Made by a program: the position numbers and the translations under genes. Source: a virus. From it: a DNA stretch of 64,000 bases. Shown piece by piece: positions 8,421 through 59,082 of this stretch. Positions within the stretch are counted from its first letter, which is position 1. Every line of letters starts with the position of its first letter. The DNA lies in the IMG/VR virus record IMGVR_UViG_3300009610_000028, positions 19,415 to 83,414 of that record. One strand, written 5' to 3'. The notes beneath the pieces were generated by a model that searched no databases, was not told where the DNA came from, and saw only the letters and a list, made by a program, of their open reading frames with translations.

Positions 8421-10198
8421 CTTTGTATCAAACGCGAATCATCGACAGCCGGCATCCCAACTTCCTGTCGAACGTAGGTGACTGGGAGAAGTGGCGACTG
8501 ACCTACCGGGGTGGGGAAGAGTTTCGCAACAAGTACCTCGAACAATTTACTAACCGCGAAGATCGACAGGACTTTGAAGCCCGCAAGCGAGTGACTCCTA
8601 TTCCGAGTTACGCGAAAGCGGCCATCAACGACATCCGTAACTCGATCTTCCAGCGGATGCACGACATCACACGTCGAGACGGCAGCAAAGCTTATCAACG
8701 AGCGATTGCTGGCTTGGATGACGGAGTAGATCGTCGTGGATCAACGATGAATTCGTTCCTCGGCATCAAATGCCTGACGGAACTTCTGGTGATGGGGCGA
8801 GTCGGCGTCTGCGTCGATTCCCCGGTAGTTGAAGGTGCTACGCTCGCCGACGCCAAGGGCGCTCGGCCGTATCTCTACAGCTATCAAGTTGAAGACATTC
8901 TCAACTACTCATGCACCAAGCCTGACGAGCCGAGTGAGTTCCAATCCGTGTTGCTTCGCGACACGTGCATGGACTACGACCAACGCACCATGCTGCCGCT
9001 TGGAACCTTCCAGCGGCTGCGGATGATGTGGATCGACAAAGAGACTGGCTTCGTCAATGTGCAGTTCTACAACGCAGCCGGCGATCCAATCGACAGCTAC
9101 GGGAACACATCAGGCCCGGTGCAACTCGAACTCACGAAGATTCCCTTCGTACTATTCGACGTTGGTGACTCGCTCATCAAGGATGTCTGTAACCACCAAG
9201 TTACGCTTCTGAATCTGATCTCCAGTGACGTGAACTTCGCGCTCAAGGCGAACTTTCCGTTCTACGTCGAGCAACGCGACATGCGTGCGGTCGGCAGCCA
9301 CTTGAAGGTCGCTGCTAACCCGGATGGCACCGCCACAACTGGTGGCCAAACATCCCACGACAACGAGATCAAGGTCGGTGCCACGCAAGGTCGGTTCTAC
9401 GACATCAAAGCGAACGCACCAGCCTTCATCAATCCGTCGCCCGACCCGCTCAAGGCGTCGATGCAGTTGCGAGCCGAAATCGCAACCGAGATTCGACGCT
9501 TGGTCAACCTTCGAGTTGAAGGCATGGCAGAACGAGCCAGCGCCGAGAGCAAGGCAATGGACAACCAAGGGCTGGAAGCTGGTCTCAGCTTCATCGGCCT
9601 GGTCCTGGAGAGTGGCGAACGCAAGATCGCCGAACATTGGGCCGCGTTTGAGGATCGAGTCGAAACCCGCCGCAAGGTGGCCACGATCAAGTATCCCGAC
9701 CGCTATAGCCTCAAGACCGATGCTGATCGCATCGACGAGGCCACTAAGCTCTCCAAGCTGATGTACACGGTGCCGGGCCAGACAGTGAAGAAAGAGATCG
9801 CCAAGATCATCAAAGATTCGCTGCTCGGTGGCAAGGTCAACGTGGAAACCATCTCGACAATCAATTCAGAGATCGACAATTCGGACTATACGACTAGCGA
9901 TCCTGAGACGATTGTTCTGGCCGTCGAGAACGGCCTATGCGGTGACCAAACCGCTTCTATGGCACTGGGCTTTGACGAGAACGAATACTTGCAAGCTCAG
10001 AAGGATCACGCCGCTAAAGCCAAGCGTGTTGCTGAGGCGCAAGCCAGCGTCAAGCCGGACCCAGGAGCACGGGGCGTCGATTCACTTTCGACCGATCCCA
10101 AGTCTGCTCCGAAAGAGAAGGCCGCCAGTCGGGATAAGTCCCTACAAAGTGACAATCAGAAGCGTGTTCGTGGCAACGGCCGCTTTCCCAAGGAGTAA
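8417..10198 (+). CDS. Portal protein
   Basis: 593 aa directly after terminase (ATGA overlap). HP...W...YRGG N-terminus, SAESK motif, disordered C-terminus. Confidence 0.85.
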   Translation: MTLYQTRIIDSRHPNFLSNVGDWEKWRLTYRGGEEFRNKYLEQFTNREDRQDFEARKRVTPIPSYAKAAINDIRNSIFQRMHDITRRDGSKAYQRAIAGLDDGVDRRGSTMNSFLGIKCLTELLVMGRVGVCVDSPVVEGATLADAKGARPYLYSYQVEDILNYSCTKPDEPSEFQSVLLRDTCMDYDQRTMLPLGTFQRLRMMWIDKETGFVNVQFYNAAGDPIDSYGNTSGPVQLELTKIPFVLFDVGDSLIKDVCNHQVTLLNLISSDVNFALKANFPFYVEQRDMRAVGSHLKVAANPDGTATTGGQTSHDNEIKVGATQGRFYDIKANAPAFINPSPDPLKASMQLRAEIATEIRRLVNLRVEGMAERASAESKAMDNQGLEAGLSFIGLVLESGERKIAEHWAAFEDRVETRRKVATIKYPDRYSLKTDADRIDEATKLSKLMYTVPGQTVKKEIAKIIKDSLLGGKVNVETISTINSEIDNSDYTTSDPETIVLAVENGLCGDQTASMALGFDENEYLQAQKDHAAKAKRVAEAQASVKPDPGARGVDSLSTDPKSAPKEKAASRDKSLQSDNQKRVRGNGRFPKE

Positions 10199-35624: not shown

Positions 35625-36245
35625 TTACAGGATGTCCATCATCAACATTGCCCGGTACACTTCCGTCTCTGCGATGGCATCACAGAGAGCGTCGTGTGGA
35701 TTCGGGTTGTGGACGTTGAAGCGGTTGCACAGAGCACCGAGGCCAACCTTGGGAAAGAGTGGCGTCAGTCCGGCGAATGCTGCCTTGTCGTTCATGTGAA
35801 TGGCGGTCAGCATCGCGTCACGAGCATGGCTATGGAATAGCTGCTGCGCGAGATCGACGCCTAGCCAGGCTTCTAGGAACTTGGACTCGAAGGCCCAGTT
35901 GTGGGCCAGCGGTACAAGACATTTGCCAAAGGGCAGATCGAGGCTGGCGACCCACGCCGTCAGCAGATCGGCTACCTTGCCCGGCTCTGGAGCGTGGAGA
36001 AGTAAATCCTCCATGCTGATGCCGTGAACGAAGCCTGCCTTGTGTTCTTGACGTTCGGGATAGTTGGGCTTGATTGTGGTGTAGAACGGTCGCACGCCTT
36101 CCAGCGGGCGAATGTCAGAGTTGAGTGGCACCACGGCGATTTGAATCGGCTCGTGGAAACCGGCACGACGGCCGGTGGTCTCCAGATCAACAGATGCCAG
36201 GAGGTTGCCGTTTAGATTGACCAAGCCCGAATAGGTCTTGGTCAT
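35625..36245 (-). CDS. DEDDh 3'-5' exonuclease (DnaQ family)
   Basis: VDLETTG, AHNWAFE, HDALCDA. Confidence 0.9.
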   Translation of the reverse strand: MTKTYSGLVNLNGNLLASVDLETTGRRAGFHEPIQIAVVPLNSDIRPLEGVRPFYTTIKPNYPERQEHKAGFVHGISMEDLLLHAPEPGKVADLLTAWVASLDLPFGKCLVPLAHNWAFESKFLEAWLGVDLAQQLFHSHARDAMLTAIHMNDKAAFAGLTPLFPKVGLGALCNRFNVHNPNPHDALCDAIAETEVYRAMLMMDIL

Positions 36246-36898
36246 GCGGCAATTGCCTCCCACGGCTCGATGACTTCCACTTCTAGCGCTCGACGCATGA
36301 CGCCTGGCCCGCGTTCCGGCTTGCAGCCTTCATCGCAAAGCCATCTCGCATACATCTCACCCCATCGGCGAAGTTCTTCAATGTCGCCAGTTTCGCCGAA
36401 GATATTATCCCAACCGTCGAAGTTGAGTAGCTCCCGATCCGGCTTGTTCTTCCCAGGCCCATAGCCTGGTCGAACGATCTTGATTAGTTCACCGCCGACT
36501 TCCTTAACGGCCGCCGCCTCGTTGTAGAAGCGCGTGTCGGGGATCAGCACTATGTCCAAACCGAGATCGCTCTTGAGCACATAGTCGAGCCACGTGCGTT
36601 CATAGACCTTCTCGCGGACTGCCGCCGTGCCCATGTCGATCCAAATCTGGCGCGGACTTTTGCCGACTGCCGGCAGCACGACTTCGCGTAGGCTTGCGCC
36701 GGGTTCCGTTTCGTAGAACTCAAGCTCTCGCAGGCCCGCCCAAGCATAAAGCTGGTGACATACGTCCTTGAGCTTCATCGCCCACGGCACCTTCCCGACG
36801 CGAATATCAGGATTCAGGTGTCGAACGTTGGCGATCACTGAGTTTGCGAACGTGTCTTTGCCAACACGGGCATAATGCCCGATGGCGATAACTTTCAT
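36242..36898 (-). CDS. Deoxynucleoside monophosphate kinase
   Basis: GHYARVGKDT P-loop, SPRQIW, IPDTRFYNE. GGAGG RBS. Confidence 0.88.
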   Translation of the reverse strand: MKVIAIGHYARVGKDTFANSVIANVRHLNPDIRVGKVPWAMKLKDVCHQLYAWAGLRELEFYETEPGASLREVVLPAVGKSPRQIWIDMGTAAVREKVYERTWLDYVLKSDLGLDIVLIPDTRFYNEAAAVKEVGGELIKIVRPGYGPGKNKPDRELLNFDGWDNIFGETGDIEELRRWGEMYARWLCDEGCKPERGPGVMRRALEVEVIEPWEAIAA

Positions 36899-40199: not shown

Positions 40200-41096
40200 A
40201 TGGACGACAAGGTTGCGTTCCTGCCCGTTGATCGTCTTTTAGAACCTAAGAGTCTGCTGCGGCTGGTTGATCGGAACTCACTCGACTACATGCAGATGCT
40301 GGACAGCATCCGCGAGTGGAAGGTGTTGAAGCCGATCCTCGTTAGACCGTCCTCGCAAGACGGGTACTACGAGATCATCGACGGTCTGTATCGCTATAGC
40401 TGTGCTAAGGATGCCGGCCTGGCAACAGTGCCCGCGCACATCAAGCACGGCGTCACAGACGACGACGTACTGATCCTGCAAATTCAGACGAACGCGATCT
40501 CGCCTGAAACAAAGCCGATGGAGTACGCCGAGCAGATGAAACGTCTGCTCGTGCGGAAACCGGACTTAACGGTGCGTGAATTGGCTCGCCTCATCCGCAA
40601 GTCAACCTCATGGATCAATGATCGCCTCGGATTGCTAAACCTTCGCAAAGAGTTGAAGCAAGTTGTGGAGCGCGGAGAAATCTCGCTCGCCAATGCTTAC
40701 ATGCTCGCGAAGATTCCCAAGTCGATGCAACTCGACTATGTGGACCAAGCGAAGACGATGCCAGGTAGAGCCTTCAAGGCGCTGGCCGCTGCTTGTGTAA
40801 AGCGATTCATGGAGGCGGTGCAACAGGGAAAGATGGATGCCTTCTATGCGGAGCAATTCTCTCCGCAGGCCCATCTCAGATCGCTAACGGACATCGAGAA
40901 CGAGATCAGCAAGCAAGGGGTCGGAGCACTGGTTGCGGTGGGTGAGGGCTGCCAAACCGTGCTGGACGGCTTCTATGCGGGCCTGCGTTGGGCCTGCCAT
41001 CTCGATAGAGCCAGCGTGCAGGAACAAGAAGCCACGATTCGTGGCCGGGAAAGGCAGGTGCTTGATGTATCTGCGCTAGACGAAAGTCCTAGCTAA
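40200..41096 (+). CDS. parB: ParB/Spo0J-like protein 1
   Basis: LKPILVRP, YEIIDGLYRY, HTH (TVRELARLIRKSTSWINDRL). Confidence 0.85.
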   Translation: MDDKVAFLPVDRLLEPKSLLRLVDRNSLDYMQMLDSIREWKVLKPILVRPSSQDGYYEIIDGLYRYSCAKDAGLATVPAHIKHGVTDDDVLILQIQTNAISPETKPMEYAEQMKRLLVRKPDLTVRELARLIRKSTSWINDRLGLLNLRKELKQVVERGEISLANAYMLAKIPKSMQLDYVDQAKTMPGRAFKALAAACVKRFMEAVQQGKMDAFYAEQFSPQAHLRSLTDIENEISKQGVGALVAVGEGCQTVLDGFYAGLRWACHLDRASVQEQEATIRGRERQVLDVSALDESPS

Positions 41097-41146
41097 ATTT
41101 CCTCTCACATTGAAACAAGAACCCTCAAATTTCGGAAACCACACAA

Positions 41147-41887
41147 ATGAGTAATGCTTTAGCCGTCCTTGATCCGAATCTTCTCCCTTCAACGCAACTC
41201 GGCACTGACGACCAGTTTGAGGAGGCCAGTCGTAGTACCGGCTTCCTCGGTCGCATGCAGTTGTACTCGAAGGGCCGTGCCATTGATGAGGGCCTGATTC
41301 CGCCGGGCAACTACGGTATCCCGGAGACAGACAAGAAGATCATCAACCTTGGCAAGGAGATCGACATCCTCCCGTTGGCCCGCCGCCTCAAGGCACTCGA
41401 CATGAGTGACAAAGATGCGGTGATCGCGAACTACGATGCAACGAGTGACACGTTCCTCGACATTCAAGCGCGCAGCAAGGAAAGCGAATCGGGCTGCCAA
41501 TGGGGCACCAGCTTCCTCGTCATTGAGCGAAGCACGAGACGGTTCCTGGAGTTCTTCTGCGGCACCAAGAGTGCCCGCCCTGTCGCTGGCGAAATCGCCT
41601 GGTACTGCCCGCTGAATCAAGCGGACATCGACCGCAAGGCTGCCAAGGGCGACGACGTGAGCAAGCTGTTCGTCCACGGTCCTCTGCCTTGCACCCTCAA
41701 GGTGCGGCTGGCCAAGGGCGGTAGCTTCTCGTGGCACGTGCCAGAGCCGCAAGAGTGCTCGATGCCCTTCACCAATCTCCCGAAGATGGAAACCATCATC
41801 GCGGAGATCAACAAGTTCGTCGCGGCGAAGACGGATGGCGATGAGACGGTCAAAGAGCCGGCCGGCAAGAAAGTCCGCGCTCGCTAG
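41147..41887 (+). CDS. Hypothetical protein, possibly ssDNA-binding
   Basis: Strong codon bias. Aromatic/Gly pattern (PGNY, SWHVP) resembles phage SSB-like proteins. Confidence 0.55.
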   Translation: MSNALAVLDPNLLPSTQLGTDDQFEEASRSTGFLGRMQLYSKGRAIDEGLIPPGNYGIPETDKKIINLGKEIDILPLARRLKALDMSDKDAVIANYDATSDTFLDIQARSKESESGCQWGTSFLVIERSTRRFLEFFCGTKSARPVAGEIAWYCPLNQADIDRKAAKGDDVSKLFVHGPLPCTLKVRLAKGGSFSWHVPEPQECSMPFTNLPKMETIIAEINKFVAAKTDGDETVKEPAGKKVRAR

Positions 41888-41983
41888 ACCCATTTTGGCG
41901 GTCTAGTCCTTTTGCCGGACAGAGACTTCTACACCGTTCCGGGATTCGTCCCGGAGCGGTTCTACTTACACAACGAGGCACAC

Positions 41984-42208
41984 ATGCGATACGTCTTGAT
42001 TTTTCTGGGCTTGCTCGCACTGCCTGGCTGCCATCTACAAATGGGCACGCAGCCGGCCAATCCGTATGGCATGCCCAAGCCGCCCACCACGCCGCCCTAC
42101 GAGAAGCCGTACTACGAGCCTCACCCTGAGCCTCGATACGACTACTACCAGGGCCACGGCCCGCAGCCGGTTCATGTGCAGCCGGCCCCGCGCCCGTACC
42201 AGTATTGA
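41984..42208 (+). CDS. Small Pro/Tyr-rich lipoprotein
   Basis: GAGG RBS. MRYVLIFLGLLALPGC lipobox-like signal. Confidence 0.65.
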   Translation: MRYVLIFLGLLALPGCHLQMGTQPANPYGMPKPPTTPPYEKPYYEPHPEPRYDYYQGHGPQPVHVQPAPRPYQY

Positions 42209-42244
42209 TGCTTGTCTGTCACGCGGGCGTTGCCGGCGTGACCC

Positions 42245-42340
42245 GACGCCGATGGTGTAACGGTTAGCACGCGGGAACGGGTTCGGTGCATGCGCCGATC
42301 AGCGTCTCCGGCGGATGCGGTTCGACTCCGCACGGTGTCC
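42245..42340 (+). ncRNA. tRNA-like RNA with extended anticodon arm
   Basis: Acceptor GACGCCG/CGGTGTC, D arm GTGT-AACGGTTA-GCAC, T arm TGCGG-TTCGACT-CCGCA. A 39-nt arm replaces the 17-nt anticodon arm. Confidence 0.7.
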
Positions 42341-42370
42341 TTCTATGCGGCGTGGCCACGCCGCGATCTT

Positions 42371-42415
42371 CGGTGGAGTGGGCTGCGCCTTTCAAGCGGG
42401 GCCTGCCACCGTTTT
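42371..42415 (+). terminator. Long hairpin with T tract
   Basis: CGGTGG/CCACCG closing stem plus TTTT. Apical loop CTTTCAA. Confidence 0.45.
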
Positions 42416-42432
42416 CTTACACAGGATTTGCC

Positions 42433-42675
42433 ATGAAGGTTTGGTCGTTGCGCCCATTGGACGAAGCACTTGGTCCGTGGGTTCCGTGGGAAGACAAGTG
42501 CTTTGGATTCGTGATCGCCGCTGAGGACGAAGCGACTGCTCGTGCTATGGCTGCCGGCGATCCTGGCGACGAGGGGGCGGATGCCTGGTTCGATCCTACG
42601 ATGTCCTCTTGCATCGACATCTCTTCTAACCCACCGGCCGAAGCCACGGTCATCATGCGCGACTATGCGTCATAA
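42433..42675 (+). CDS. Small phage hypothetical protein
   Basis: AGGA RBS. DKCFGFVIAAEDEATARAMA motif common in phage early proteins. Confidence 0.7.
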   Translation: MKVWSLRPLDEALGPWVPWEDKCFGFVIAAEDEATARAMAAGDPGDEGADAWFDPTMSSCIDISSNPPAEATVIMRDYAS

Positions 42676-42685
42676 AGGATAACGA

Positions 42686-43213
42686 ATGCCTGTCGAAGCC
42701 GTGCTCATTCAACAGCCGGCAATCGACTTCACAACTCTTCTGACAATCAGTGGCCAAGCTCTCGGCCACAACATCGCCCGCGAGGCTGACACCAGTCACC
42801 GCAAGATGGCGGATGCTGAGAAGTTCCTGTCGTGCCTCTCAGCACTGCGGGATGAAGTCGTTGCACCAACTCCCAATCTTCTATCGCACGTCTCGTTCAG
42901 CGTCCTCTTGATCGCTGACAACTACGACCTACTAGACATCCTCGAATGCGCCTCCGGTATGCCGTTCGTGCGGGCTGAGACTACAGCCCCACAGGACATC
43001 GACCTGTGCGTCATCAGTGGAACGCTCCAGCAGTGGCGAGATGCCGTTGCCACGGGCACGTCCGAGTCAGTGTCGTCAAACGTGCGCCTCTGCTACTCAA
43101 AAATCCTTCTGCTGTTTGATCGCGTCGGCCTCTCGAACGTCTGGAAAGACTACGAGAAGCGCCCGTCCGCAGATCACAGCGGCTTCTACTTAGAGGACAA
43201 ACGGCGTGTCTGA
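42686..43213 (+). CDS. Divergent ThyX-fold protein
   Basis: LLSHVSFSVLL, VISGTLQQWRDAV and SNVRLCY recall ThyX segments. The RHR signature is absent. Confidence 0.55.
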   Translation: MPVEAVLIQQPAIDFTTLLTISGQALGHNIAREADTSHRKMADAEKFLSCLSALRDEVVAPTPNLLSHVSFSVLLIADNYDLLDILECASGMPFVRAETTAPQDIDLCVISGTLQQWRDAVATGTSESVSSNVRLCYSKILLLFDRVGLSNVWKDYEKRPSADHSGFYLEDKRRV

Positions 43214-45212
43214 AATTCTCGATGTCAAACTCACTACTCGAACTTCAAGCGGAAGACTGATTCGTTCATCGGCCAAGATTGAATACAAGGACGGCCGCAT
43301 CTACTTCGTCAAATCGCCCTTCTCGCTCAAAGACGAGATCAAGGCAATGCGGGGATCGCACTGGCACGGCCGGGAAGACGATTCCTACGAAGACTACCGG
43401 AAGATTTGGTCGGTCGATGACTGCCAACGCAATCGCTTCCAACTTGGCTTCCTCATGGAAGAGGATGTCTATGCCTGGTTCGACCGCGACCTGATCCAGC
43501 ACACCTATGAAGGCACGACGCTCGATGGGCTGCCCAAAGAGTTGATGCCCCACCAGAAGGACTTGGCGGATAGCGGCCTGACCTATCACTTCCAACTGTG
43601 GGCTGCGGAGATGGGCGTCGGCAAGACGCTGGCCGCCCAGAAGGTGATTGAGAAGAGCGGCGCGAAGCTTTGGTATTGGATCGGACCCAAGTCGTCGATA
43701 CCCAACATCAAGCGTGAGTTCCGCCGATGGGGCTTCAACTTCGATGGCCCAATCAAAGTCGAGTTCATCACCTACGAAGAACTCGTTCGTCGCGTTGACG
43801 ATTGGAACTGGGAAAGCGACAAGCTTCCCCAAGGCGTGATCTTCGACGAGTCCAGCCGCCTCAAGGGCGCTACGAGTCAACGGACCAAGGCCGCTCAGCG
43901 GCTGGCCGATTGGATTCGCGAGCACTACGGCGTCGAGAAGGGCTTCGTCATCGAGATGAGCGGAACGCCGTCTCCGAAGTCGCCTGTCGATTGGTGGAGT
44001 CAGTGCGAGATTGCCTGGCCTGGCTTCCTGCGAGAAGGCAGCCCGAAGGCGCTGGAGCAACGCTGCGGCTTTGTCGTTATGCAGCAGTTCGATGCGGGAG
44101 TGTTCCCGAAGCGGATTGGCTGGAAGGACGATGAGCGGAAATGCAAGCACTGCGGTCTCTTTGAAGAGGCCGGTGTTCACGAGCTTGATCCAGACGCGGC
44201 CGAGGCGGACTTTCACCGCTACGATCCGAGCATCAATGAAGTTGCCTTCATGTACGACCGGCTCAAGGGCCTGGTCGTAATCAAGCACAAGAAAGATTGC
44301 TTGACGTTGCCGGACAAACGCTACCGGAAAATCATGTGCCCGCCCAACGCGAGCACGCTCCGAGTGGCCAGTGCGATTGCCGAGAGTGCGCCCAACACGA
44401 TCACGGGCTTGACGCTGCTCCGCGAATTGAGCGACGGCTTCCAATACCGCGACGTGGAAGATGGAGAAATTCCTTGCCCGCACTGCCCGAAGAGTTGCGG
44501 GGAGATTGAGGAATGGTTCGATCCTTCTGACGAAGAGGCAACCTACAGTGCCATCGAGTTCCTCAGTGAGGAGTTCGTGGCCAAGCTCCAGAAGCGAATC
44601 GTGCCTTGCACGCGCTGCGGTGGCGACAAGGTTGTGCCGAAAGTTGTTCGGATCACTCGCGAGATTCCTTGCCCGAAAGACAAGGCTCTCAAGCAACTGC
44701 TCGAAGAGTGCGAAGAGACCGGCCGGATCGTGATCTTTGCTGGCTTCACTGGCAGCGTGGATCGCGTCGTTACCTTCTGCCAGAAAGAGAAGTGGTCGGT
44801 CGTTCGCTGCGACGGCCGTGGTTTCCAAGTCACCGACAAGGATGGCAACGTTATCACGCAGGGCGGCGAAGAGGCGCTCAACTACTGGGCCGACCGTGAG
44901 AACCAACACGTTGCCTTCGTGGCCCACCCTGAATCGGGCGGCATGAGCTTGACCCTGGTCGAAGCACGGATGGCCGTGTACTGGTCGAACAGCTTCAAGC
45001 CTGAGTACAGATCGCAAAGCGAAGATCGTATCCACCGTAAAGGAATGGATGAAAATCTTGGCTGTGAGATCGTTGATCTAATTCACCTGCCAACTGATTC
45101 GCGGGTGCTCGAAGTCATCCAAGCCAACCGCAAGTTGGAACTGATGACGATGGGCGAGTTCACGGACGCTCTCGAAGGTGAGGGCGCGGATGTCGAAGAA
45201 CTCGCGGCCTAA
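43206..45212 (+). CDS. SNF2-like superfamily 2 helicase
   Basis: EMGVGKT, IFDES, SGTP, GGMSLTL, QSEDRIHRKG. Confidence 0.92.
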   Translation: MSEILDVKLTTRTSSGRLIRSSAKIEYKDGRIYFVKSPFSLKDEIKAMRGSHWHGREDDSYEDYRKIWSVDDCQRNRFQLGFLMEEDVYAWFDRDLIQHTYEGTTLDGLPKELMPHQKDLADSGLTYHFQLWAAEMGVGKTLAAQKVIEKSGAKLWYWIGPKSSIPNIKREFRRWGFNFDGPIKVEFITYEELVRRVDDWNWESDKLPQGVIFDESSRLKGATSQRTKAAQRLADWIREHYGVEKGFVIEMSGTPSPKSPVDWWSQCEIAWPGFLREGSPKALEQRCGFVVMQQFDAGVFPKRIGWKDDERKCKHCGLFEEAGVHELDPDAAEADFHRYDPSINEVAFMYDRLKGLVVIKHKKDCLTLPDKRYRKIMCPPNASTLRVASAIAESAPNTITGLTLLRELSDGFQYRDVEDGEIPCPHCPKSCGEIEEWFDPSDEEATYSAIEFLSEEFVAKLQKRIVPCTRCGGDKVVPKVVRITREIPCPKDKALKQLLEECEETGRIVIFAGFTGSVDRVVTFCQKEKWSVVRCDGRGFQVTDKDGNVITQGGEEALNYWADRENQHVAFVAHPESGGMSLTLVEARMAVYWSNSFKPEYRSQSEDRIHRKGMDENLGCEIVDLIHLPTDSRVLEVIQANRKLELMTMGEFTDALEGEGADVEELAA

Positions 45213-48220: not shown

Positions 48221-48292
48221 TGTGCCCTAGCACAATGGTAGTGCTCGTCACTGTTAATGACGCGGTTCCTGGTTCGAGTCCAGGGGGCACAG
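48221..48292 (+). tRNA. trnN: tRNA-Asn(GTT)
   Basis: Full cloverleaf: TGTGCCC/GGGCACA, GCAC/GTGC, CGTCA-CTGTTAA-TGACG, CCTGG-TTCGAGT-CCAGG. CCA not encoded. Confidence 0.95.
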
Positions 48293-48311
48293 CTTCACAA
48301 TGGAGGTTTGA

Positions 48312-50406: not shown

Positions 50407-52931
50407 GCAAGATTTACATCGACTCCGAGACGTGCGGCCTGCACTCTCAGATGGTTCTCTTGCAGTACGCAGAAGAAGACGGCCCGATTGTTTTGCACGA
50501 CGTATGGACTCGCCCGATTCGTGAGACGCTCCAGATCATCGAGTGGTTCTGCGAGAACACGGTGGTTGGATTCAACTTGGCGTTTGACTGGTTTCAAATC
50601 GTCAAGACGTACACGACATTCCGGCTGGCCAATCCTGACTGGATTCCCCACGAGCACATCAACGAAATTGCAATGCTTGAGCCGGCCGCCCAAGACGGCC
50701 CGTGCGTCAAGCCGGCCAACGCGCTCGATCTGCTGCTGCACTCCCGTAAGGGACCGTATCAATCTCTGATGGCCCGCGAGGACATCAGAATCCGCAAGGT
50801 GCCTACCGCTCTAGCGTATGCCCTCGCAATGGAACTGGAAGATCGCATCCATCTGGATGACATCTACTTCGCCAAGAGCGCCGACAAGGATGCTCCCAGG
50901 TGGCAAGTGTTCGACCGGAGAGCGCCTGATGGCACACTCGACGAAACGTTCAAAGATGTCGTTCTTCGTTTCAACGCCGCAGGCGGACTCAAATTCCTGG
51001 CCGAGCATGCTTTGGGATTCCAACCGAAATTCCATTACAAGGATGTCGAGCCTGATCCTGCCTGGCGACCCTATGAACTCGGATACGCTCCAACCGCTCT
51101 GGCCGTCTCAAGCCCCGAAGCTAACTGGGAAGTTTGGGGTAACAAAGACGGGAAGGATAAGCTGCTCGGCCGAGCCTGGCCGGCGGTCATCGACAAGTTC
51201 ATCGACCATTGGGCCACTCGCACCGATGCTCGCGAGTACGCCACGGACGACATCGTTTACACCAGAGCACTCGACAAGCACTTCGGTTGCCCGACGCCTG
51301 GTGATGATGACTCGATCCTGGCTTGCATGGTGCCGGTCATTCGTTGGCGTGGCTTCACGATCAACGTCGAAGGCATGAAGGGATTGTTGGCGGACGCTCA
51401 GAAGATCGTCGCCAGCAGCCCCGTCAACATCAACAAGCCGTCTGCCGTTCGTGCGTACCTCTTAGAGGTCATGGACGACATCGAGAGTCTCAAGATTCAG
51501 GAGAGCACGAAGAAAGCGAACCTTGAGGCCGTCTCGAAGTACGAAGTCAAAGCCAAGCTGATCGAAGAGGAAGACGAAGATGAAATCGGAACCGAGGGAA
51601 TCGAAGGTTGGGAAGAAATCAAAGACCCCGAATTCTGTCTCAAGTGCGATGGCACTGGACACCTTGGACCGAGCACTACTTGCGCTCGTTGTAATGGCCT
51701 CGGAGTTCTCAAAGCTGGAACAAAGCATCCGGCTGCTGTGCGAGCAAAAGAGCTTCTCAAAGTCAAGGTCGCCGCGAAAGAAATCGAACTCTACTCGAAG
51801 CTGATCTTCGCCAAGAAGTTCCACGCGAGCTTCAACATTGTGGGCACGTTGTCCAACCGCATGTCGGGTGGCGACGGCTTGAACGCCCAAGGGATCAAAG
51901 GCTCGGATGAAGTCCGTTGCATGTTCCCGCTGGCCTGGAAAGGCTACCAACTTTGCGGCGGTGACTTCGACTCATTTGAAGTGACCATCGCAGACGCGGT
52001 TTACAACGACCCTGAACTACGCAAGACGCTGGTCACCAAGGCAGCTTGCAAGTGCAAGGGCGAAGACAAAGAGTGCGACGACTGCGAAGGCACGGGCATC
52101 ACGACTAAGAAAGTCCATGCTCTATTCGCGATGATTATCTTCGACTGCACTTACGAAGAAGTGATCGCAGACAAGGACAAGTACAAGAAGGGCAAGGGTG
52201 GCGTGTTCGCCGAGATTTACGGCGGCAACGAAGACACCCTGGTCCGCAACCTTGGCATCAGCAAAGAGCTTGCGGTCAAAGCTCACAACGGATGGGCCGA
52301 ACGCTACAAGGGCATCGGCAAGTCACGTGAGCGGACGATCAAGAACTTCTGCTCGATGAAGCAGCCGGCCGGCGCTGGATCACAAGTGATCTGGGATGAG
52401 CCAGCCGAGTTCGTCGAAAGCTTCCTTGGTTTCCGTCGCTACTTCACGTTGGAAAACAAAATCTGTCGTGCCTTGTTTGACTTGGCACGCAAGCCGCCGA
52501 AGGGCTGGAAGAATCACCCGGTCAAAGTCGTCCGACGAGATCGCGTGCAAACAGCCGGCGGCGCAGTCGCTTCCGCTCTCTATGGGGCCGCCTTCCAAAT
52601 CCAGGCTGCCAACATGCGGGCTGCGGCCAACCACGAGATTCAGTCACCAGGCGGCCAGATCACCAAAGCGGTGCAGCGGGCCATCTGGGATTTGCAGCCT
52701 CACGGGATTCACGAGCTACTCGTCGGTCCCATGAACGTGCATGACGAACTCATGGTGAGCACTCACCCAAGTGTGGTGAAGCAAGTGACGCATAAGGTTC
52801 GGACGGTGGTTGAATCATACCGAGACAAAGTGCCACTCATCGGTATGTCCTGGTTCGAGGAAATGGCGAACTGGGCAGAGAAAAAAGATGGCGCTCAAAA
52901 GGTCAAGATTCGTGCCCCGGAGATGATGTGA
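50403..52931 (+). CDS. polA: DNA polymerase family A with 3'-5' exonuclease
   Basis: IDSET, FNLAFD, YATDD exonuclease motifs. DFDSFE (A), KGGVFAEIYG (B), VHDEL (C). Confidence 0.92.
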   Translation: MSKIYIDSETCGLHSQMVLLQYAEEDGPIVLHDVWTRPIRETLQIIEWFCENTVVGFNLAFDWFQIVKTYTTFRLANPDWIPHEHINEIAMLEPAAQDGPCVKPANALDLLLHSRKGPYQSLMAREDIRIRKVPTALAYALAMELEDRIHLDDIYFAKSADKDAPRWQVFDRRAPDGTLDETFKDVVLRFNAAGGLKFLAEHALGFQPKFHYKDVEPDPAWRPYELGYAPTALAVSSPEANWEVWGNKDGKDKLLGRAWPAVIDKFIDHWATRTDAREYATDDIVYTRALDKHFGCPTPGDDDSILACMVPVIRWRGFTINVEGMKGLLADAQKIVASSPVNINKPSAVRAYLLEVMDDIESLKIQESTKKANLEAVSKYEVKAKLIEEEDEDEIGTEGIEGWEEIKDPEFCLKCDGTGHLGPSTTCARCNGLGVLKAGTKHPAAVRAKELLKVKVAAKEIELYSKLIFAKKFHASFNIVGTLSNRMSGGDGLNAQGIKGSDEVRCMFPLAWKGYQLCGGDFDSFEVTIADAVYNDPELRKTLVTKAACKCKGEDKECDDCEGTGITTKKVHALFAMIIFDCTYEEVIADKDKYKKGKGGVFAEIYGGNEDTLVRNLGISKELAVKAHNGWAERYKGIGKSRERTIKNFCSMKQPAGAGSQVIWDEPAEFVESFLGFRRYFTLENKICRALFDLARKPPKGWKNHPVKVVRRDRVQTAGGAVASALYGAAFQIQAANMRAAANHEIQSPGGQITKAVQRAIWDLQPHGIHELLVGPMNVHDELMVSTHPSVVKQVTHKVRTVVESYRDKVPLIGMSWFEEMANWAEKKDGAQKVKIRAPEMM

Positions 52932-55557: not shown

Positions 55558-56125
55558 AACAATCCTTCTCGACATCGACGGAGTGATGAACCGCTTCCAG
55601 TGGTACATCTTCCAACGGCTCGGAGTCCCGATGGACGACGAGTCACAGTATCCAGTCGAGTGCGGGTGGGACATCGTGAAGGCGGCGAACACGCTGCTTG
55701 GTTGCGAACACTACTCGAAGACATCTTTCTGGAACTCAGTCACCCGTGAGATGTGGGCCGACGTTCCACCATCTGAATTCTTCGGCTATCTGCTTGGCAT
55801 GGCCGAGTCAATGGTCGGCCAAGAGAACGTTCACTTCCTCACGTCGCCCACGCTCGACGCTGACTGCTTGGCTGGCAAAGCGGACTGGATAAAGCGGTTT
55901 GCACCCAAATGGATGCACCGCAACTTCCTGATCGGCCCACCCAAACATCTCTGTGCTCAGCCTGGCGCGGTGCTCATCGACGACGCCGACAAGAACGTCG
56001 ATGCCTTCAACGCTCATGGCGGCAAGGGAATCTTGCTGCCTCGGCCGTGGAACAGTCTTCACGGCAATGATCCGCATTTCCACGTCTCGCATGAGATCAA
56101 CAACTATGTCAGCCAAAGATTCTAA
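55541..56125 (+). CDS. HAD 5'(3')-deoxyribonucleotidase 1
   Basis: LDIDGV, FLTSP, GKADW, LIDD, PRPWN. Confidence 0.85.
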   Translation: MDAVHKTILLDIDGVMNRFQWYIFQRLGVPMDDESQYPVECGWDIVKAANTLLGCEHYSKTSFWNSVTREMWADVPPSEFFGYLLGMAESMVGQENVHFLTSPTLDADCLAGKADWIKRFAPKWMHRNFLIGPPKHLCAQPGAVLIDDADKNVDAFNAHGGKGILLPRPWNSLHGNDPHFHVSHEINNYVSQRF

Positions 56126-57212
56126 GCGCCGCGAACTGCTGCAACTCGCCGAGACCTACGCGGCCGGCAAGTTCAAGATCGCTGGCCTCTGGGTCAGCGA
56201 GAAGCTCGACGGCACACGTTGCTTTTGGGACGGCGGGATCACCCGCGAAGTCTCGACCGATCAAGTGCCGTGGGCCGGCATCCTCGATCCGAAAACCATG
56301 AAGCGGAAGGGCAAGATCAAGCCGAAAGCGACGGGCCTCTGGTCGCGCTACGGCAATCCGATCATGGCCCCGGATTCATTCCTCAATACTCTTCCTGCCT
56401 GCCCGCTAGACGGCGAACTGTGGGCGGGGCGCGGCAAGTTTCAACTCTGCCGCTCGATCTGTGCTGGTGACGAACCCGATCCACGGTTCCATCAGATTTC
56501 ATACGCGGTTTATAGCTGCCCGTCGTTTGAAGACTTCCTGATGCCTGGCCTCATCAAGAACGCCCAGATGTATTGCGACCTCAAGGCCAACGCCGTCGAG
56601 TGGGCCAACGACCGAGCTAAGAGCATCCCCGGCTTCGGCCAGGTACATGCACAGGCGACGTTCGATGAGGAGCTTATGTTCCTCCGCGAGTTTCTCGAAT
56701 CTCAGAACGACAAGGTGTTCATCCACCAGCAGTTCAAGATGCCGACCGTGGAAACGGAAGCCCTGGAGTTCGTCGAAGAGTTGCTCAACGCTGTGCTCGA
56801 CAAGGGCGGTGAGGGCCTAGTGATCCGTGACCCGGCCGCCAGGTGGATCGCGAAGCGCCACAAGGGGCTGCTCAAGTTCAAGCCCTACGAAGATTCCGAA
56901 GCCGTCATCGTCGGCTACACGTCTGGCAAGCCCGGCAAGGAAGGCAACCGCCTCGGAAAGATCGGCGCTCTCATCGTCAAGTGGGGCGAGAAGGAATTCA
57001 AGATCGCGTCGGGCCTCTCTGGCAAGACGTGGGAGTTCAAGGACCAACTCATGTCGCAGTATGCGGCCGAGCATCCTGACGAAATCATGCCCGCTCACTT
57101 TGAAGGGAAGACACTTGGCAAAGGCGACACGATCACTTTCAAATACCGAGAACTCTCTGACGACGGTGTTCCGAAAGAAGGCCGCTTCTGGCGTGTCCGT
57201 GGACTGGAGTAA
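56106..57212 (+). CDS. ATP-dependent DNA ligase
   Basis: SEKLDG, LDGELW, GEGLV, LLKFK, OB fold ending ITFKY. Confidence 0.92.
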   Translation: MSAKDSKRRELLQLAETYAAGKFKIAGLWVSEKLDGTRCFWDGGITREVSTDQVPWAGILDPKTMKRKGKIKPKATGLWSRYGNPIMAPDSFLNTLPACPLDGELWAGRGKFQLCRSICAGDEPDPRFHQISYAVYSCPSFEDFLMPGLIKNAQMYCDLKANAVEWANDRAKSIPGFGQVHAQATFDEELMFLREFLESQNDKVFIHQQFKMPTVETEALEFVEELLNAVLDKGGEGLVIRDPAARWIAKRHKGLLKFKPYEDSEAVIVGYTSGKPGKEGNRLGKIGALIVKWGEKEFKIASGLSGKTWEFKDQLMSQYAAEHPDEIMPAHFEGKTLGKGDTITFKYRELSDDGVPKEGRFWRVRGLE

Positions 57213-57953: not shown

Positions 57954-57999
57954 CTCTTCCTGACTGATCCCCAAACCTTCTGCGCTCAAGGTGCGCCCT

Positions 58000-59082
58000 A
58001 TGTCAACAAACTTCATCGAGATCGTTCAAATCGACGCCGTAAAGGCGCACCCGAATGCTGACAAGCTGGAGCTTGCATGTATTCGTGGGTCAGAGACTGC
58101 CATCCAGAAGGGATCGTTTGTCGCTGGCGACATTGTGATTTTCTTTCCGCCGGACATGCTCATCCCGGAACACGTGGGTGAGTTACTTGGCGTCAAGAAG
58201 TATCTCAAGCACTCGATCATGGACGGATTCAAGCGGCAGTGCCGTGTGTCCGCTTGTCGTCTGCGGGGTGAGCCGAGCTACGGCTTCATCATTCCCTACT
58301 CGCATGCTCCGACCAAGGAAGCTGTGCCGGTCGGGACCAACGTCGATCACTGGTTTGACGCTCAGAAGTACGTCCCTCCAGTGCGTACTGGCTGCGAAGA
58401 GTCAGAGCGTGACGATGCCCGGTTCCACCAATACACCGGCATCGAGAAGTACGACCGTTACCCAGAGGCAATCGCTCCAGGAACGCCGGTCAGGATCACA
58501 GAGAAGATTCACGGCACAAATAGTCGTGTCGGCATCATCCAAACGCCGGCTGGTGAGTTTGAGTGGATGGCCGGCTCGCATCGTGTTCGCCGCCGCCGGC
58601 CAGAGGAGGGTAAGCGGTCACTCTACTGGTCACCGCTCGACAACCCGAAGCTGGCTGAGCTTATCACCGCGCTACACGACGGAGTTCACTCTGTCATCGT
58701 CTTCGGTGAAATCTACGGCGGCACCGTCCAAGACATGGACTATGGCGTGCCTGGTTGCACCGGCTATCGCGTCTTCGACATCTCGATTGATGGGAAGTAT
58801 GCCGACTGGTCGCTTGTGCTAAGCGCCTGCCAACAGTGCGGCATCGAACTGGTGCCGCTGCTCTACGAAGGACCGTTCAGCCACGAGCTTGTGAAAGAGC
58901 ACACCTACGGCCCCACGACTCTCGCCACACGCGAAGAGATCAAGACCAGCTTCAAAGATCGGGAAGGCTGCGTCATCACACCACTGACAGAGACATTCTA
59001 CGCCCCGACTGGCGGCCGACTGATTCTCAAGTCAGTGAGCGCTGACTACCACGACCGCAAAGGTGCTCAAGACAATGAATAG
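58000..59082 (+). CDS. RNA ligase (DRB0094/Rnl5 family)
   Basis: HPNADKLE OB domain, TEKIHGTN, FGEIYG, FDI, REG, LK motifs. Confidence 0.92.
   Translation: MSTNFIEIVQIDAVKAHPNADKLELACIRGSETAIQKGSFVAGDIVIFFPPDMLIPEHVGELLGVKKYLKHSIMDGFKRQCRVSACRLRGEPSYGFIIPYSHAPTKEAVPVGTNVDHWFDAQKYVPPVRTGCEESERDDARFHQYTGIEKYDRYPEAIAPGTPVRITEKIHGTNSRVGIIQTPAGEFEWMAGSHRVRRRRPEEGKRSLYWSPLDNPKLAELITALHDGVHSVIVFGEIYGGTVQDMDYGVPGCTGYRVFDISIDGKYADWSLVLSACQQCGIELVPLLYEGPFSHELVKEHTYGPTTLATREEIKTSFKDREGCVITPLTETFYAPTGGRLILKSVSADYHDRKGAQDNE

Follow-up and report, generated by a model that had tools for sequence, protein, structure and literature searches.

A replication-gene operon in a clade of uncultured phages contains a tRNA-shaped RNA gene that cannot read codons, since a hairpin that is free to vary in length and sequence stands where the anticodon arm would be. 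We put at roughly 85% the probability that this element belongs to a conserved, functional family of non-decoding tRNA-like RNAs kept by related phages at one syntenic slot. The main role of the slot RNA may be processing of the operon transcript, a reading to which the arrangement of the locus leads us to give a little less than an even chance. Gene finders and Rfam both miss the element, and a public gene call even runs a protein across it; phage annotation can thus overlook a conserved class of tRNA-shaped RNAs.

Anatomy of the element and its surroundings

The element lies on the + strand of the window, by which we mean the whole 64,000-nt stretch of viral DNA that was analyzed; coordinates below are those of the window. 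The original prediction had described intact acceptor, D and T arms with one extra A before U8, a long imperfect helix (42272-42310) that lacks a 7-nt loop, and three flanking structures, namely an upstream hairpin, an 18-nt palindrome and a long hairpin. The arms lie where it placed them, with A-T-G as the junction, the helix folds exactly as described, and the flanking structures are all in position.

41984..42208, + strand: gene next upstream of the RNA cluster; proline-rich ORF (74 aa), lipoprotein-type signal
42218..42242, + strand: GC-rich hairpin GTCACGC...GCGTGAC, ending 2 nt before the 5' end of the element
42245..42340, + strand: whole tRNA-like RNA gene, 96 nt including discriminator C42340; CCA not encoded
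42245..42251, + strand: acceptor stem, 5' strand GACGCCG, pairing with 42333-42339 (7/7 pairs, one of them G.U)
42252..42254, + strand: acceptor/D junction A-T-G, 3 nt; two nt (TG or TA) in the other 11 members analyzed
42255..42270, + strand: D arm GTGT / AACGGTTA / GCAC, closed by a U.G pair; loop contains GG
42272..42310, + strand: 39-nt arm replacing the anticodon arm, a two-part hairpin without a 7-nt loop
42272-42279/42303-42310, + strand: lower stem of the long arm, 8 bp with one A.C mismatch
42280-42282 and 42299-42302, + strand: internal loop of the long arm (3+4)
42283-42298, + strand: upper hairpin of the long arm, 6 bp with a CATG loop
42311..42315, + strand: variable-loop equivalent GCGGA
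42316..42332, + strand: T arm TGCGG / TTCGACT / CCGCA, canonical, with a 5-bp stem and a TTCRA-type loop
42333..42340, + strand: acceptor stem, 3' strand CGGTGTC, and discriminator C, followed by the pyrimidine-rich trailer TTCTAT
42347..42364, + strand: perfect palindrome of 18 nt that folds into a hairpin (7 bp, GGCC loop; -11.8 kcal/mol, z -2.31)
42372..42418, + strand: long hairpin with loop CTTTCAA; stem-loop 42372-42410, then G and TTTTCTT (-21 kcal/mol, z -1.84)
42433..42675, + strand: downstream gene p80, 80 aa; the next cistron past the RNA cluster

Like a canonical tRNA, the element has a 7-bp acceptor stem, a 4-bp D stem, a 5-bp T stem and a TTCGACT loop; it lacks a 5-bp anticodon stem with a 7-nt loop, a two-nt junction between acceptor and D arm, and detection at standard thresholds. 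Ordinary viral tRNAs and a bacterial tRNA-Glu(TTC) share the 17-base core of its D arm without a single difference, and a pattern scan of genome contigs found one stretch, an ordinary tRNA-Glu. The acceptor 5' strand GACGCCG occurs also in relatives L047 and L061 and in an insert-bearing tRNA of L191.

Four G.U pairs in the element would be A.C if read from the opposite strand, and the long arm folds at -15.6 kcal/mol on the + strand and at -11.0 kcal/mol on the minus strand; these G.U pairs and this strand-specific stability point to an RNA encoded on the + strand. Folding energies are otherwise unexceptional: the z-score of the long arm is only -1.38, with equally good folds in 19 of 200 shuffles, and that of the whole element is -0.50, its minimum-energy fold not being a cloverleaf. 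A loose "tRNA frame" pattern also arises by chance, at 0.31 per simulated window (at least one in 29 of 100 simulations). The above-chance status of the element therefore rests on homology, synteny and covariation.

The upstream hairpin at 42218-42242 folds at -17.4 kcal/mol (z -4.31, matched by 0 of 200 shuffles) and is a candidate 3'-end stabilizer for the preceding transcript. Judged by eye, the hairpin and T tract at 42372-42418 are terminator-like; a consensus promoter and terminator scan of 41000-43500 did not list them, and returned 0 promoters and one terminator-like site, on the other strand. A repeated mobile hairpin was considered for both the upper hairpin of the long arm and the palindrome at 42347-42364 and was rejected, since within the window the former has no second copy and the latter is unique.

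Detection by gene finders and RNA-family models

ARAGORN and Infernal runs with tRNA, tmRNA and YrlA models, which the original prediction had named as checks, were carried out, and at standard settings none of them identified the element as any of the three. With ARAGORN at default settings and Rfam at its gathering scores, the element is not called, the sole call in the window being a tRNA-Asn at 48221-48293. The tRNA model RF00005 has no match at E<=10 in 331 bases around the element, and YrlA (RF02553) likewise has none at E<=10, the topology of the element being that of an ordinary tRNA and not permuted. No tmRNA is found by ARAGORN -m at a lowered threshold, nor by Rfam. A tmRNA, a YrlA RNA and a long-variable-arm type II tRNA were all rejected as identities, and lowered-threshold ARAGORN yields only a poor, mismatched Asn solution. 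The best Rfam match, in E-value mode, is mascRNA-menRNA at 25.8 bits (E 0.003), short of its cut-off of 42.5 bits, in an alignment that covers the acceptor and T arms.

The public gene call that runs across the element is P0004 (129 aa, the p80 gene), which starts inside the RNA and is probably too long.

A family at one syntenic slot

A structure-based scan for the frame found 12 distinct members, the window element included, on the gene strand and between the homologues of p246 and p175; the window element (42245-42340) sits between 41887 and 42686, in this p246-p175 slot. A pattern scan of IMG/VR gave 77 pattern matches, 15 of them with full frames; among the 11 distinct full-frame sequences, 7 are of this type (2 of them new) and 4 are ordinary tRNAs. 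The family thus comes to 14 distinct members, of which 12 were analyzed in detail. In the shared frame the acceptor follows GACRCNG/CNGYGTC, the D arm GTGT..GCAC and the T arm CCGGG, and the window element has the family's D-stem pairs (U11-A24, G12-C23 and U13.G22), a discriminator that is C or U, and no CCA. No member has a 7-nt anticodon loop: the middle region always forms one hairpin, 20-61 nt long, and in the short members (middles of 20-24 nt) its loop is 3-4 nt. Arm sequences cannot be aligned between members, and no motif is common to the family.

Strong matches to a covariance model of the family are single-copy and located in the slot. The motif is present in 13 of 70 distinct slots and absent from the other 57; the five closest relatives carry a different, 124-nt RNA there, and in other relatives the slot holds real tRNAs (Met at 6 loci, Glu at 3, tRNA-Glu(TTC) included, plus Thr and Leu). 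The window element is the most divergent member, with its extra junction nucleotide, a different T stem and a frame identity of 0.60-0.78 to the others. The family model gives it 27.6 bits, against 28.2 bits for the window's true tRNA-Asn and 42-94 bits for the other members; because the model scores the tRNA-Asn equally well, membership of the window element rests on synteny and shared stem sequence.

Searches by blastn found no match for 41000-44000 in the phage collection and nothing at E<=0.01 for 42205-42432 among 80 related loci, and a wider query against the related loci returned only the identical contig L100 and coding matches to p80. When only the window element was used to build a covariance model, that model found nothing at E<=1 in 40 relatives' records; given the family that the structure-based frame scan later found, this result was a false negative. 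ARAGORN calls none of the elements of the window, L047, L061, L050 and L018. A single metagenome scan found no relative with a helicase identity between 78% and 100%.

Covariation and conservation of the frame

Retained pairing had been taken in the original prediction to argue against simple decay, and covariation across homologous loci had been proposed as a check; the 14 members that share the frame at one slot, and compensatory changes in its stems among the 12 analyzed in detail, strongly support that argument. Across the 12 members analyzed, the acceptor and T stems are 97.2% paired (40-51% in slid controls), and 6 of their 12 pairs have compensatory changes on both sides, a number reached in 0 of 500 shuffles. 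Pairing is kept in the T stem of the window element, though its sequence differs from that of the relatives. Eight members have G-C as the first D-stem pair, three have U-A and one has A-U; U13.G22 is found in 12 of 12, and acceptor pairs 1, 2, 3, 5 and 7 are fixed in 11-12 of 12. Mean identity over 45 pairs is 0.80 for the frame, 0.72 for p175 DNA and 0.73 for helicase DNA, so that the frame is at least as conserved as the neighboring genes.

Two forms of the long arm occur between identical flanks in metagenome run X3, at depths of 2.1 and 2.7. Site-specific inversion of the arm was rejected because the listed differences are, by eye, unlike a reverse complement, and DGR-type mutagenesis because the listed changes are not confined to A.

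A possible role in transcript processing

The original prediction offered three options: a tRNA mimic or decoy, an RNase P/Z processing signal, or an intron-containing substrate. A structured, non-decoding tRNA shape is what the family has; the processing signal appears to fit the anatomy best of the three, and the intron is disfavored (see "Alternative explanations"). Under a processing role, host tRNA-maturation enzymes would recognize the tRNA frame. Cutting by RNase P at G1 would give the upstream message a 3' end formed by the stable hairpin at 42218-42242, and a 3' endonuclease such as RNase Z, acting past the discriminator, would free the downstream message; the same 3' cut would release a small stable tRNA-like RNA, possibly given CCA. 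The element would in this way punctuate a polycistronic transcript, a role comparable to that of plant mitochondrial t-elements and to that of mascRNA at MALAT1.

The surroundings of the family are consistent with such a role. In all 11 members examined, a GC hairpin precedes the element by 2-6 nt and a pyrimidine-rich trailer follows it. Relatives have their p175 start codon 20-40 nt downstream of the element; in the window, p175 is separated from it by one further gene and two hairpins, and the element is placed between cistrons, as a t-element-like signal would be. The real tRNAs that occupy the slot in other relatives suggest that it is a tRNA-type processing position. RNase P requires only the stack of acceptor and T arm; the conserved D arm and near-invariant acceptor suggest a partner more specific than the processing enzymes. 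Absence of the element from 57 of 70 slots, those of the five closest relatives included, counts against the processing reading, as do the unexceptional folding energies and the divergence of the window element.

If the processing role holds, phages apply mitochondrial "tRNA punctuation" with a tRNA stripped of its decoding part, and separate ends and stabilities for the cistrons of one operon would be explained. The family is also a natural experiment on which parts of a tRNA are needed by maturation alone.

Comparison with known tRNA-like RNAs

The mascRNA and MEN-beta RNAs (RF01684) are likewise tRNA-like without a decoding anticodon arm, and their acceptor and T arms align with those of the phage element; their processing sets the 3' end of the upstream RNA. 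They form a mammalian nuclear family with no homology to the phage element, which differs in having a full D arm and a long arm. Closer in setting, the rnaC and rnaD RNAs of phage T4 (species 1 and 2) are small non-decoding RNAs with tRNA-like ends, processed together with tRNAs; they sit in tRNA gene clusters and have other architectures. YrlA Y RNAs (RF02553) also join a non-decoding tRNA-like module to a long helix, but they are circularly permuted, the T arm preceding the D arm, with a loop-closed acceptor and ends that form the Ro-binding stem, whereas the acceptor of the window element ends open.

The t-elements of plant mitochondria, as described by Forner et al. (2007, PMC1920247), are RNase P and RNase Z signals at mRNA ends. 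By this account, they too are non-canonical, non-decoding tRNA-like cloverleaves within longer transcripts near mRNA ends, for which cuts by RNase P and RNase Z have been proposed or shown; they can be released as stable small RNAs, and real tRNAs fill the same role elsewhere (PMC1920247); real tRNAs occur in the phage slot as well. They differ in belonging to an organelle and in that their cleavage was mapped experimentally (PMC1920247), cleavage of the phage RNA being only inferred. The phage family further differs in its well-conserved D arm and acceptor sequence and in its long, freely varying hairpin. In the literature searched, a partial collection, no anticodon-less tRNA-like phage gene is described.

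Alternative explanations

It is somewhat unlikely that the element is a stable tRNA-shaped RNA with an independent function, its frame serving as scaffold for processing and stability. The variable hairpin would then be displayed as a binding site or antisense element, or the whole RNA would act as a decoy or sponge titrating a host or phage protein that recognizes the tRNA body, for example a tRNA-directed defense enzyme. Such a job would suit an acceptor sequence and D arm conserved beyond the needs of pairing, an arm that varies freely among relatives and within one population (run X3), and the clade's other tRNA-shaped genes, in which a conserved structured domain replaces the anticodon loop or arm. 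A decoy for an anticodon nuclease would, however, require an anticodon loop; no arm motif is common across the family, most relatives are without the element, and the flanking proteins have no recognizable family. Decay of a tRNA, for instance of a former tRNA-Glu of the slot, into a functionless pseudogene seems quite improbable. It would account for the ordinary tRNAs, tRNA-Glu(TTC) included, that occupy the slot in distant relatives, for a D arm of the kind seen in tRNA-Glu, for the extra junction base, and for the modest fold z-scores and the many relatives that lack the element. Decay would also erode the stems and T loop, yet the frames are fully paired with compensatory changes and, in pairs with ~70% gene identity, more conserved than adjacent coding DNA, and 12 of 12 middles still form a hairpin.

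We consider it very improbable that the element is a tRNA precursor, from whose anticodon loop a hairpin mini-intron of 20-22 nt is excised before the phage RNA ligase joins the two halves into a decoding tRNA. ARAGORN in intron mode does propose a tRNA-Leu(CAG), split between positions 32 and 33 by a 20-nt intron, but this tRNA would be aberrant, with C37, an A.C stem mismatch, a non-canonical intron site, a short variable loop and discriminator C; bacterial tRNA-Leu is long-armed and has A73. Seven unpaired nt flank the upper hairpin, TTC-A among them; excision of the 16-nt hairpin alone, however, yields an 8-bp stem with G at position 33. An archaeal bulge-helix-bulge intron was rejected, since by eye the unpaired stretches face each other without a 4-bp spacer helix. 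Introns in phage tRNAs have been published (Devoto et al. 2019, PMC6784885): the Lak megaphage tRNA genes resemble ours in being over-long and missed by bacterial finders, and resemble the relatives' insert-bearing tRNAs with their conserved 48-50-nt insert, but in neither the window element nor the syntenic family does any excision give a consistent canonical tRNA. Removal of those relatives' inserts restores a canonical anticodon arm in 5 of 5, a point for the intron reading; the syntenic middles of 20-24 nt with 3-4-nt loops have no room for an anticodon, and exhaustive excision scans give a different anticodon for each member and none that is consistent, a noisy test in that ARAGORN accepts many variants and added padding may cause some calls. 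Finally, a DNA-level signal is barely credible, whether as an attachment site that copies a tRNA gene of the host or as a piece of a replication origin. The intergenic region of the element is indeed rich in hairpins and surrounded by replication genes (ParB-like, helicase, exonuclease), and some relatives are classed as proviruses; but the provirus-class records carry it mid-record (G010, 36177-36260 of 75407; G015, 51047-51155 of 113838), no recombinase adjoins it, and the G.U pairs and strand-specific stability indicate a + strand RNA.

RNA ligase, insert-bearing tRNAs and flanking genes

The phage does encode an RNA ligase, as the original prediction said (PF09414 with a PHA02142 OB domain, 57991-59082), a point in favor of the mini-intron, but the evidence does not support a connection between ligase and element. 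As a core gene of the whole clade, the ligase occurs in all 6 near-complete relatives (6 of 6), and the window-element model had no match in any of them at E<=1; this lack of a tie to the element also weighs against the mini-intron. One of the near-complete relatives, G015, carries another member of the element family. RtcB is absent from the record of this phage.

Relatives also have insert-bearing tRNAs, in which excision of a conserved 48-50-nt insert leaves a canonical anticodon arm (5/5), and sister genes in which a structured domain of 48-50 nt, itself conserved, either lies within the anticodon arm or takes its place. Some true tRNAs of the clade carry the same 48-50-nt domain between positions 27 and 28.

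It is doubtful, if conceivable, that the tRNA body serves this clade as an all-purpose chassis on which both non-decoding RNAs and interrupted tRNAs are built, with a ligase-based cut-and-rejoin system. Three kinds of gene would fall under this reading: the slot element, with a fast-evolving hairpin that differs even within one population, the sister genes, and the true tRNAs with the inserted domain. Were this so, the clade-wide ligase would act with a putative nuclease as a protein-based system that cuts and rejoins tRNA-shaped RNAs in viruses that infect bacteria, and the window element would be a substrate or decoy of that system, not mere punctuation. The insert-bearing tRNAs and the conserved ligase make enzyme-driven tRNA splicing in phages testable.

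Pfam and PHROGs have no family for p246, the 74-aa ORF, p80 or p175. The Atlas holds nothing usable for p175 and, for p246, nothing beyond hypothetical families of viruses, a minority of whose members carry Pam3_Gp34 and DUF5895. A search with p80 returned only identical copies and one relative at 46%, and p80 homologues in L002-L004 have 49-55% identity; ORFs similar to the upstream 74-aa ORF are visible in L003 and L004.

Anatomy and setting of the element

The window covers bases 19415-83414 of an IMG/VR virus record (83.4 kb, ~56% G+C). It carries an RNA gene with the acceptor stem, D arm and T arm of a tRNA (its frame) and a hairpin in place of the anticodon arm. The genes around it, among them three for proteins without recognisable family (p246, p80 and p175), all lie on the + strand.

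Features of the element and its neighbourhood, in order
40200-41096, +, ParB-like gene
41147-41887, +, p246
41984-42208, +, 74-aa lipoprotein-like ORF, followed by the RNA cluster
42245-42340, +, whole tRNA body, read from the sequence
acceptor stem of the body, +, 7 bp, GACGCCG/CGGTGTC, one G.U pair
acceptor-D junction, +, 3 bases (2 in tRNAs)
D arm, +, GTGT/AACGGTTA/GCAC
arm in the middle, +, 39 nt
variable loop, +, 5 nt
T arm, +, TGCGG/TTCGACT/CCGCA
3' end, +, discriminator C, CCA not encoded
42433-42675, +, p80, first gene after the RNA cluster
42686-43213, +, p175
43206-45212, +, helicase
after the helicase, +, exonuclease

The three arms with their extra junction base are found at 42245-42340 (+) as the original prediction described them, and so are the upstream hairpin, the palindrome of 18 nt and the long hairpin, which has the loop CUUUCAA and is followed by TTTTCTT. 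Folding of the 39-nt arm likewise returns the pairing described there: a lower stem of 8 bp containing one A.C mismatch, a 3+4 internal loop, and an upper stem of 6 bp closed by a CAUG loop, at -15.6 kcal/mol (the minus strand is weaker, -11.0 kcal/mol). The arm has a z of -1.38, with 19 of 200 shuffles equally good, and the upstream hairpin a z of -4.31; folded as a whole, the element is unremarkable (z -0.50), with a predicted shape that is not a cloverleaf. Given modest z-scores, and a loose frame pattern that arises by chance 0.31 times per simulated window, structure statistics alone are insufficient for this element.

Annotation passes over the locus. ARAGORN and Rfam at gathering scores make one call in the window, a tRNA-Asn at 48221-48293, and leave the element uncalled; the Rfam tRNA model does not match it at E<=10, and its top permissive Rfam match is mascRNA-menRNA at 25.8 bits (E 0.003, cut-off 42.5 bits). 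The public gene call P0004 (42286-42675, 129 aa, GTG start) begins within the RNA element and spans half of it together with both downstream hairpins; homologues favour the 80-aa p80 starting at 42433.

A family with one slot and one frame

A helicase search recovers 80 loci in viral contigs, the best at 78% identity, and as many in metagenome contigs. In 80 related loci blastn finds no counterpart of the element, and a covariance model made from its single sequence finds none in 40 other records at E<=1. On 8 records, the Rfam tRNA model gives over-long tRNA matches that ARAGORN misses. A scan that requires the T arm, the 7-bp acceptor and the D stem and leaves the middle free shows this design to recur in 11 further distinct sequences, in the intergenic slot between p246 and p175 homologues: loci L047 (identical to L049 and L120), L141, L071, L061 (identical to L062), L050, L121, L018, L029, L038 (identical to L118), L026 and L027. 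A pattern scan of IMG/VR yields 77 matches, 15 with full frames; these comprise 11 distinct sequences, 7 of the slot-family type (two of them new, L207 and L228) and 4 ordinary tRNAs. The family thus has 14 distinct members and is apparently limited to this phage clade. The motif occupies 13 of 70 distinct slots, and strong matches to the family model are single-copy and located in the slot.

Members share the acceptor GACRCNG/CNGYGTC, a junction of two bases (three in the window member), a T arm that is mostly CCGGG/T.CRA../CCCGG, and a discriminator C or U with CCA absent. The D stem carries U11-A24, G12-C23 and U13.G22 in 12 of 12 members, with a first pair that varies (G-C in 8, U-A in 3, A-U in 1). 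The middle is always a single hairpin of 20-61 nt, with 3-4-nt loops in the short ones, and cannot be aligned between members.

Across the 12 aligned members, pairing in the acceptor and T stems reaches 97.2% (40-51% in slid controls) and 6 of 12 pairs have changed on both sides, values reached by none of 500 shuffles; the window member supplies several of the T-stem double changes, keeping its pairing with another stem sequence. Mean identity over 45 pairs is 0.80 for the frame, against 0.72 for p175 DNA and 0.73 for helicase DNA. Judged by this covariation and by conservation above that of p175 and helicase DNA, the frame does not behave like a dead tRNA gene. The compensatory changes, looked for across homologous loci as had been suggested, bear out the view that retained pairing opposes simple decay.

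Within the family the window member diverges most, and it alone has the extra junction base. Under R2, a family model built from six short members, it scores 27.6 bits, no better than the unrelated tRNA-Asn of the window (28.2; other members 42-94), so its place in the family rests on a shared slot and strand, on the acceptor sequence and D-stem pattern, and on architecture. Its D arm resembles the tRNA-Glu type and is identical over 17 bases to that of a bacterial tRNA-Glu(TTC); descent from a slot-resident tRNA-Glu is possible but unproven, since viral Gln and Val tRNAs have such a D arm too.

Variation of the arm in nature

Two contigs of metagenome run X3 cover the element, at low depths and as contigs that cannot prove linkage. 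The first, at 42243-42337 with depth 2.1, has a single letter that departs from the window. The second, at 42243-42364 with depth 2.7, carries 19 substitutions, and 6 letters are inserted or deleted; among the differences listed, 12 substitutions and 5 indel events all fall within 42273-42315, the arm and variable loop, and six further differences lie beyond those listed. Flanking sequence (42243-42272 and 42316-42364) is unchanged, and depth in the neighbouring contigs is 5.1-5.7. This apparent replacement of an arm block within an unchanged frame matches the pattern between relatives.

An independent assembly (L100) breaks at 42296, inside the arm, and contig ends of run X2 fall at 42267 and 41971. 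Such breaks fit sequence heterogeneity in or beside the arm and prove nothing.

What the slot may require

A hidden decoding tRNA, the intron-containing substrate of the original prediction, is disfavoured. In intron mode ARAGORN reads the element as a tRNA-Leu(CAG) whose 20-nt intron would separate positions 32 and 33; this product is aberrant, having C37, an A.C stem mismatch, discriminator C and a short variable loop. If the 16-nt upper hairpin alone is excised, an 8-bp stem remains that carries 7 unpaired bases (GGT + TCAG) and puts G at position 33. Where the middle measures 20-24 nt there is no room for an anticodon loop, and exhaustive excision, a noisy test, gives sparse anticodons that differ from member to member. 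The RNA ligase mentioned beside this proposal is indeed encoded (PF09414, with an N-terminal PHA02142 OB domain). Its tie to the element is not supported: of 14 relatives searched, 8 have the gene, and so do all 6 of those at least 90% complete, which makes it a core gene of the clade and not an element-specific partner. It lies at 57991-59082, close to a separate ATP-dependent DNA ligase (55953-57212).

The simplest reading is that the slot requires a substrate for host tRNA-maturation enzymes. Ordinary tRNAs take the same slot in other relatives (Met at 6 loci, Glu at 3, and also Thr and Leu). In each member examined, a strong GC hairpin stands 2-6 nt upstream and a pyrimidine-rich trailer follows, and relatives start p175, with a GGAG-type ribosome site, 20-40 nt beyond the element. 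RNase P would cut at G1, so that the hairpin caps the end of the upstream message; cleavage behind the discriminator by a 3' endonuclease would free the downstream message, and for both cuts a tRNA lacking its anticodon should still be adequate. A stable RNA with its own partner, acting as scaffold or decoy, is a serious rival: the near-invariant acceptor sequence and conserved D arm go beyond what RNase P requires. Together with the absence of the element from most relatives, this conservation suggests that processing may not be the whole story.

Non-decoding tRNA-like RNAs are already known (t-elements, mascRNA, YrlA), and phage T4 rnaC and rnaD are further examples. mascRNA performs equivalent processing for MALAT1, and the slot element is likened to it in that role. 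The proposed job, tRNA-maturation cuts, is also that of the t-elements of plant mitochondria, tRNA-like structures described as processing substrates in transcripts (PMC1920247). A literature search of partial coverage found no anticodon-less tRNA-like gene family described in phages.

Other structured RNAs in relatives

The five closest relatives carry a different conserved candidate structured RNA at the element's place, not present in the window and with no match in Rfam; 8 of its 28 predicted pairs show compensatory changes.

Candidate 124-nt RNA
L002:1593-1716
L003:2581-2705
L004:2814-2936
L005:3126-3248
L007:3063-3187

Over-long tRNA genes stand in arrays about 1 kb downstream of tRNA-Asn in virus records G002, G003, G004, G006 and G013. 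Five of the genes contain a conserved structured insert of 48-50 nt, lying between nucleotide 27 and the base after GCGTTA, with motifs AACCGCT..., TTGCC...GGGCCGAA and ...AGCGTTATC. Removing it in silico leaves 71-73 nt, an anticodon stem paired 5/5 (four units) or 4/5 (one unit), and 7-nt loops reading Asn GTT (two units), Arg TCT, Ile GAT and TTT. ARAGORN misses these genes and Rfam gives no family for the insert, which may be a new class of intron or intervening sequence in phage tRNAs.

Insert-bearing tRNA genes
L003:9254-9376
L004:9185-9306
L190:58-180
L191:254-373, -
L005:8600-8720

Further tRNA-shaped genes
L003:9385-9510
L003:9514-9610
L004:9316-9445
L190:187-316
L191:115-244, -
L187:130-251, -
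L182 (G004:19516-19613), -

Some sister genes hold the insert's conserved domain within a 5-bp "anticodon" stem that covaries but shows no recognisable anticodon. Others have, in place of the anticodon arm, a related two-part arm (8-9 bp, an internal loop, a GNRA hairpin of 4 bp, CGAA) that is built like the one of the window element and covaries between L003 and G004. Flanking the insert-bearing arrays are free-standing copies of a motif GGGCCGA-N8-10-GGTTATC, which TGATGA often follows and which resembles the 3' part of the insert (L003:9180-9215 and 9611-9640; flanks of L188, L191 and L182).

The slot in L009-L081 and L100-L179 is a mosaic of recurring non-coding modules, including one with GGGGATTCCAGCA (17 of 70 distinct slots), one with GAYGYGCATCAWGGGCG (13 of 70) and a conserved hairpin immediately upstream of the tRNA-like element. 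Distant relatives have aberrant tRNA-like frames in or near the slot, with AACGNCG-type acceptors or long arms (L008:1791-1930 and 2026-2130; L074:3105-3188, tRNA-Leu(GAG) to ARAGORN; L142:1851-1939; L164:198-279). The D-arm core of the window element recurs in two unrelated viral contigs (L089:3198-3296; L098, -, around 436-494), where one tRNA has a CTA (amber-reading) anticodon and a long variable arm and the other has ~10 extra bases in its anticodon loop.
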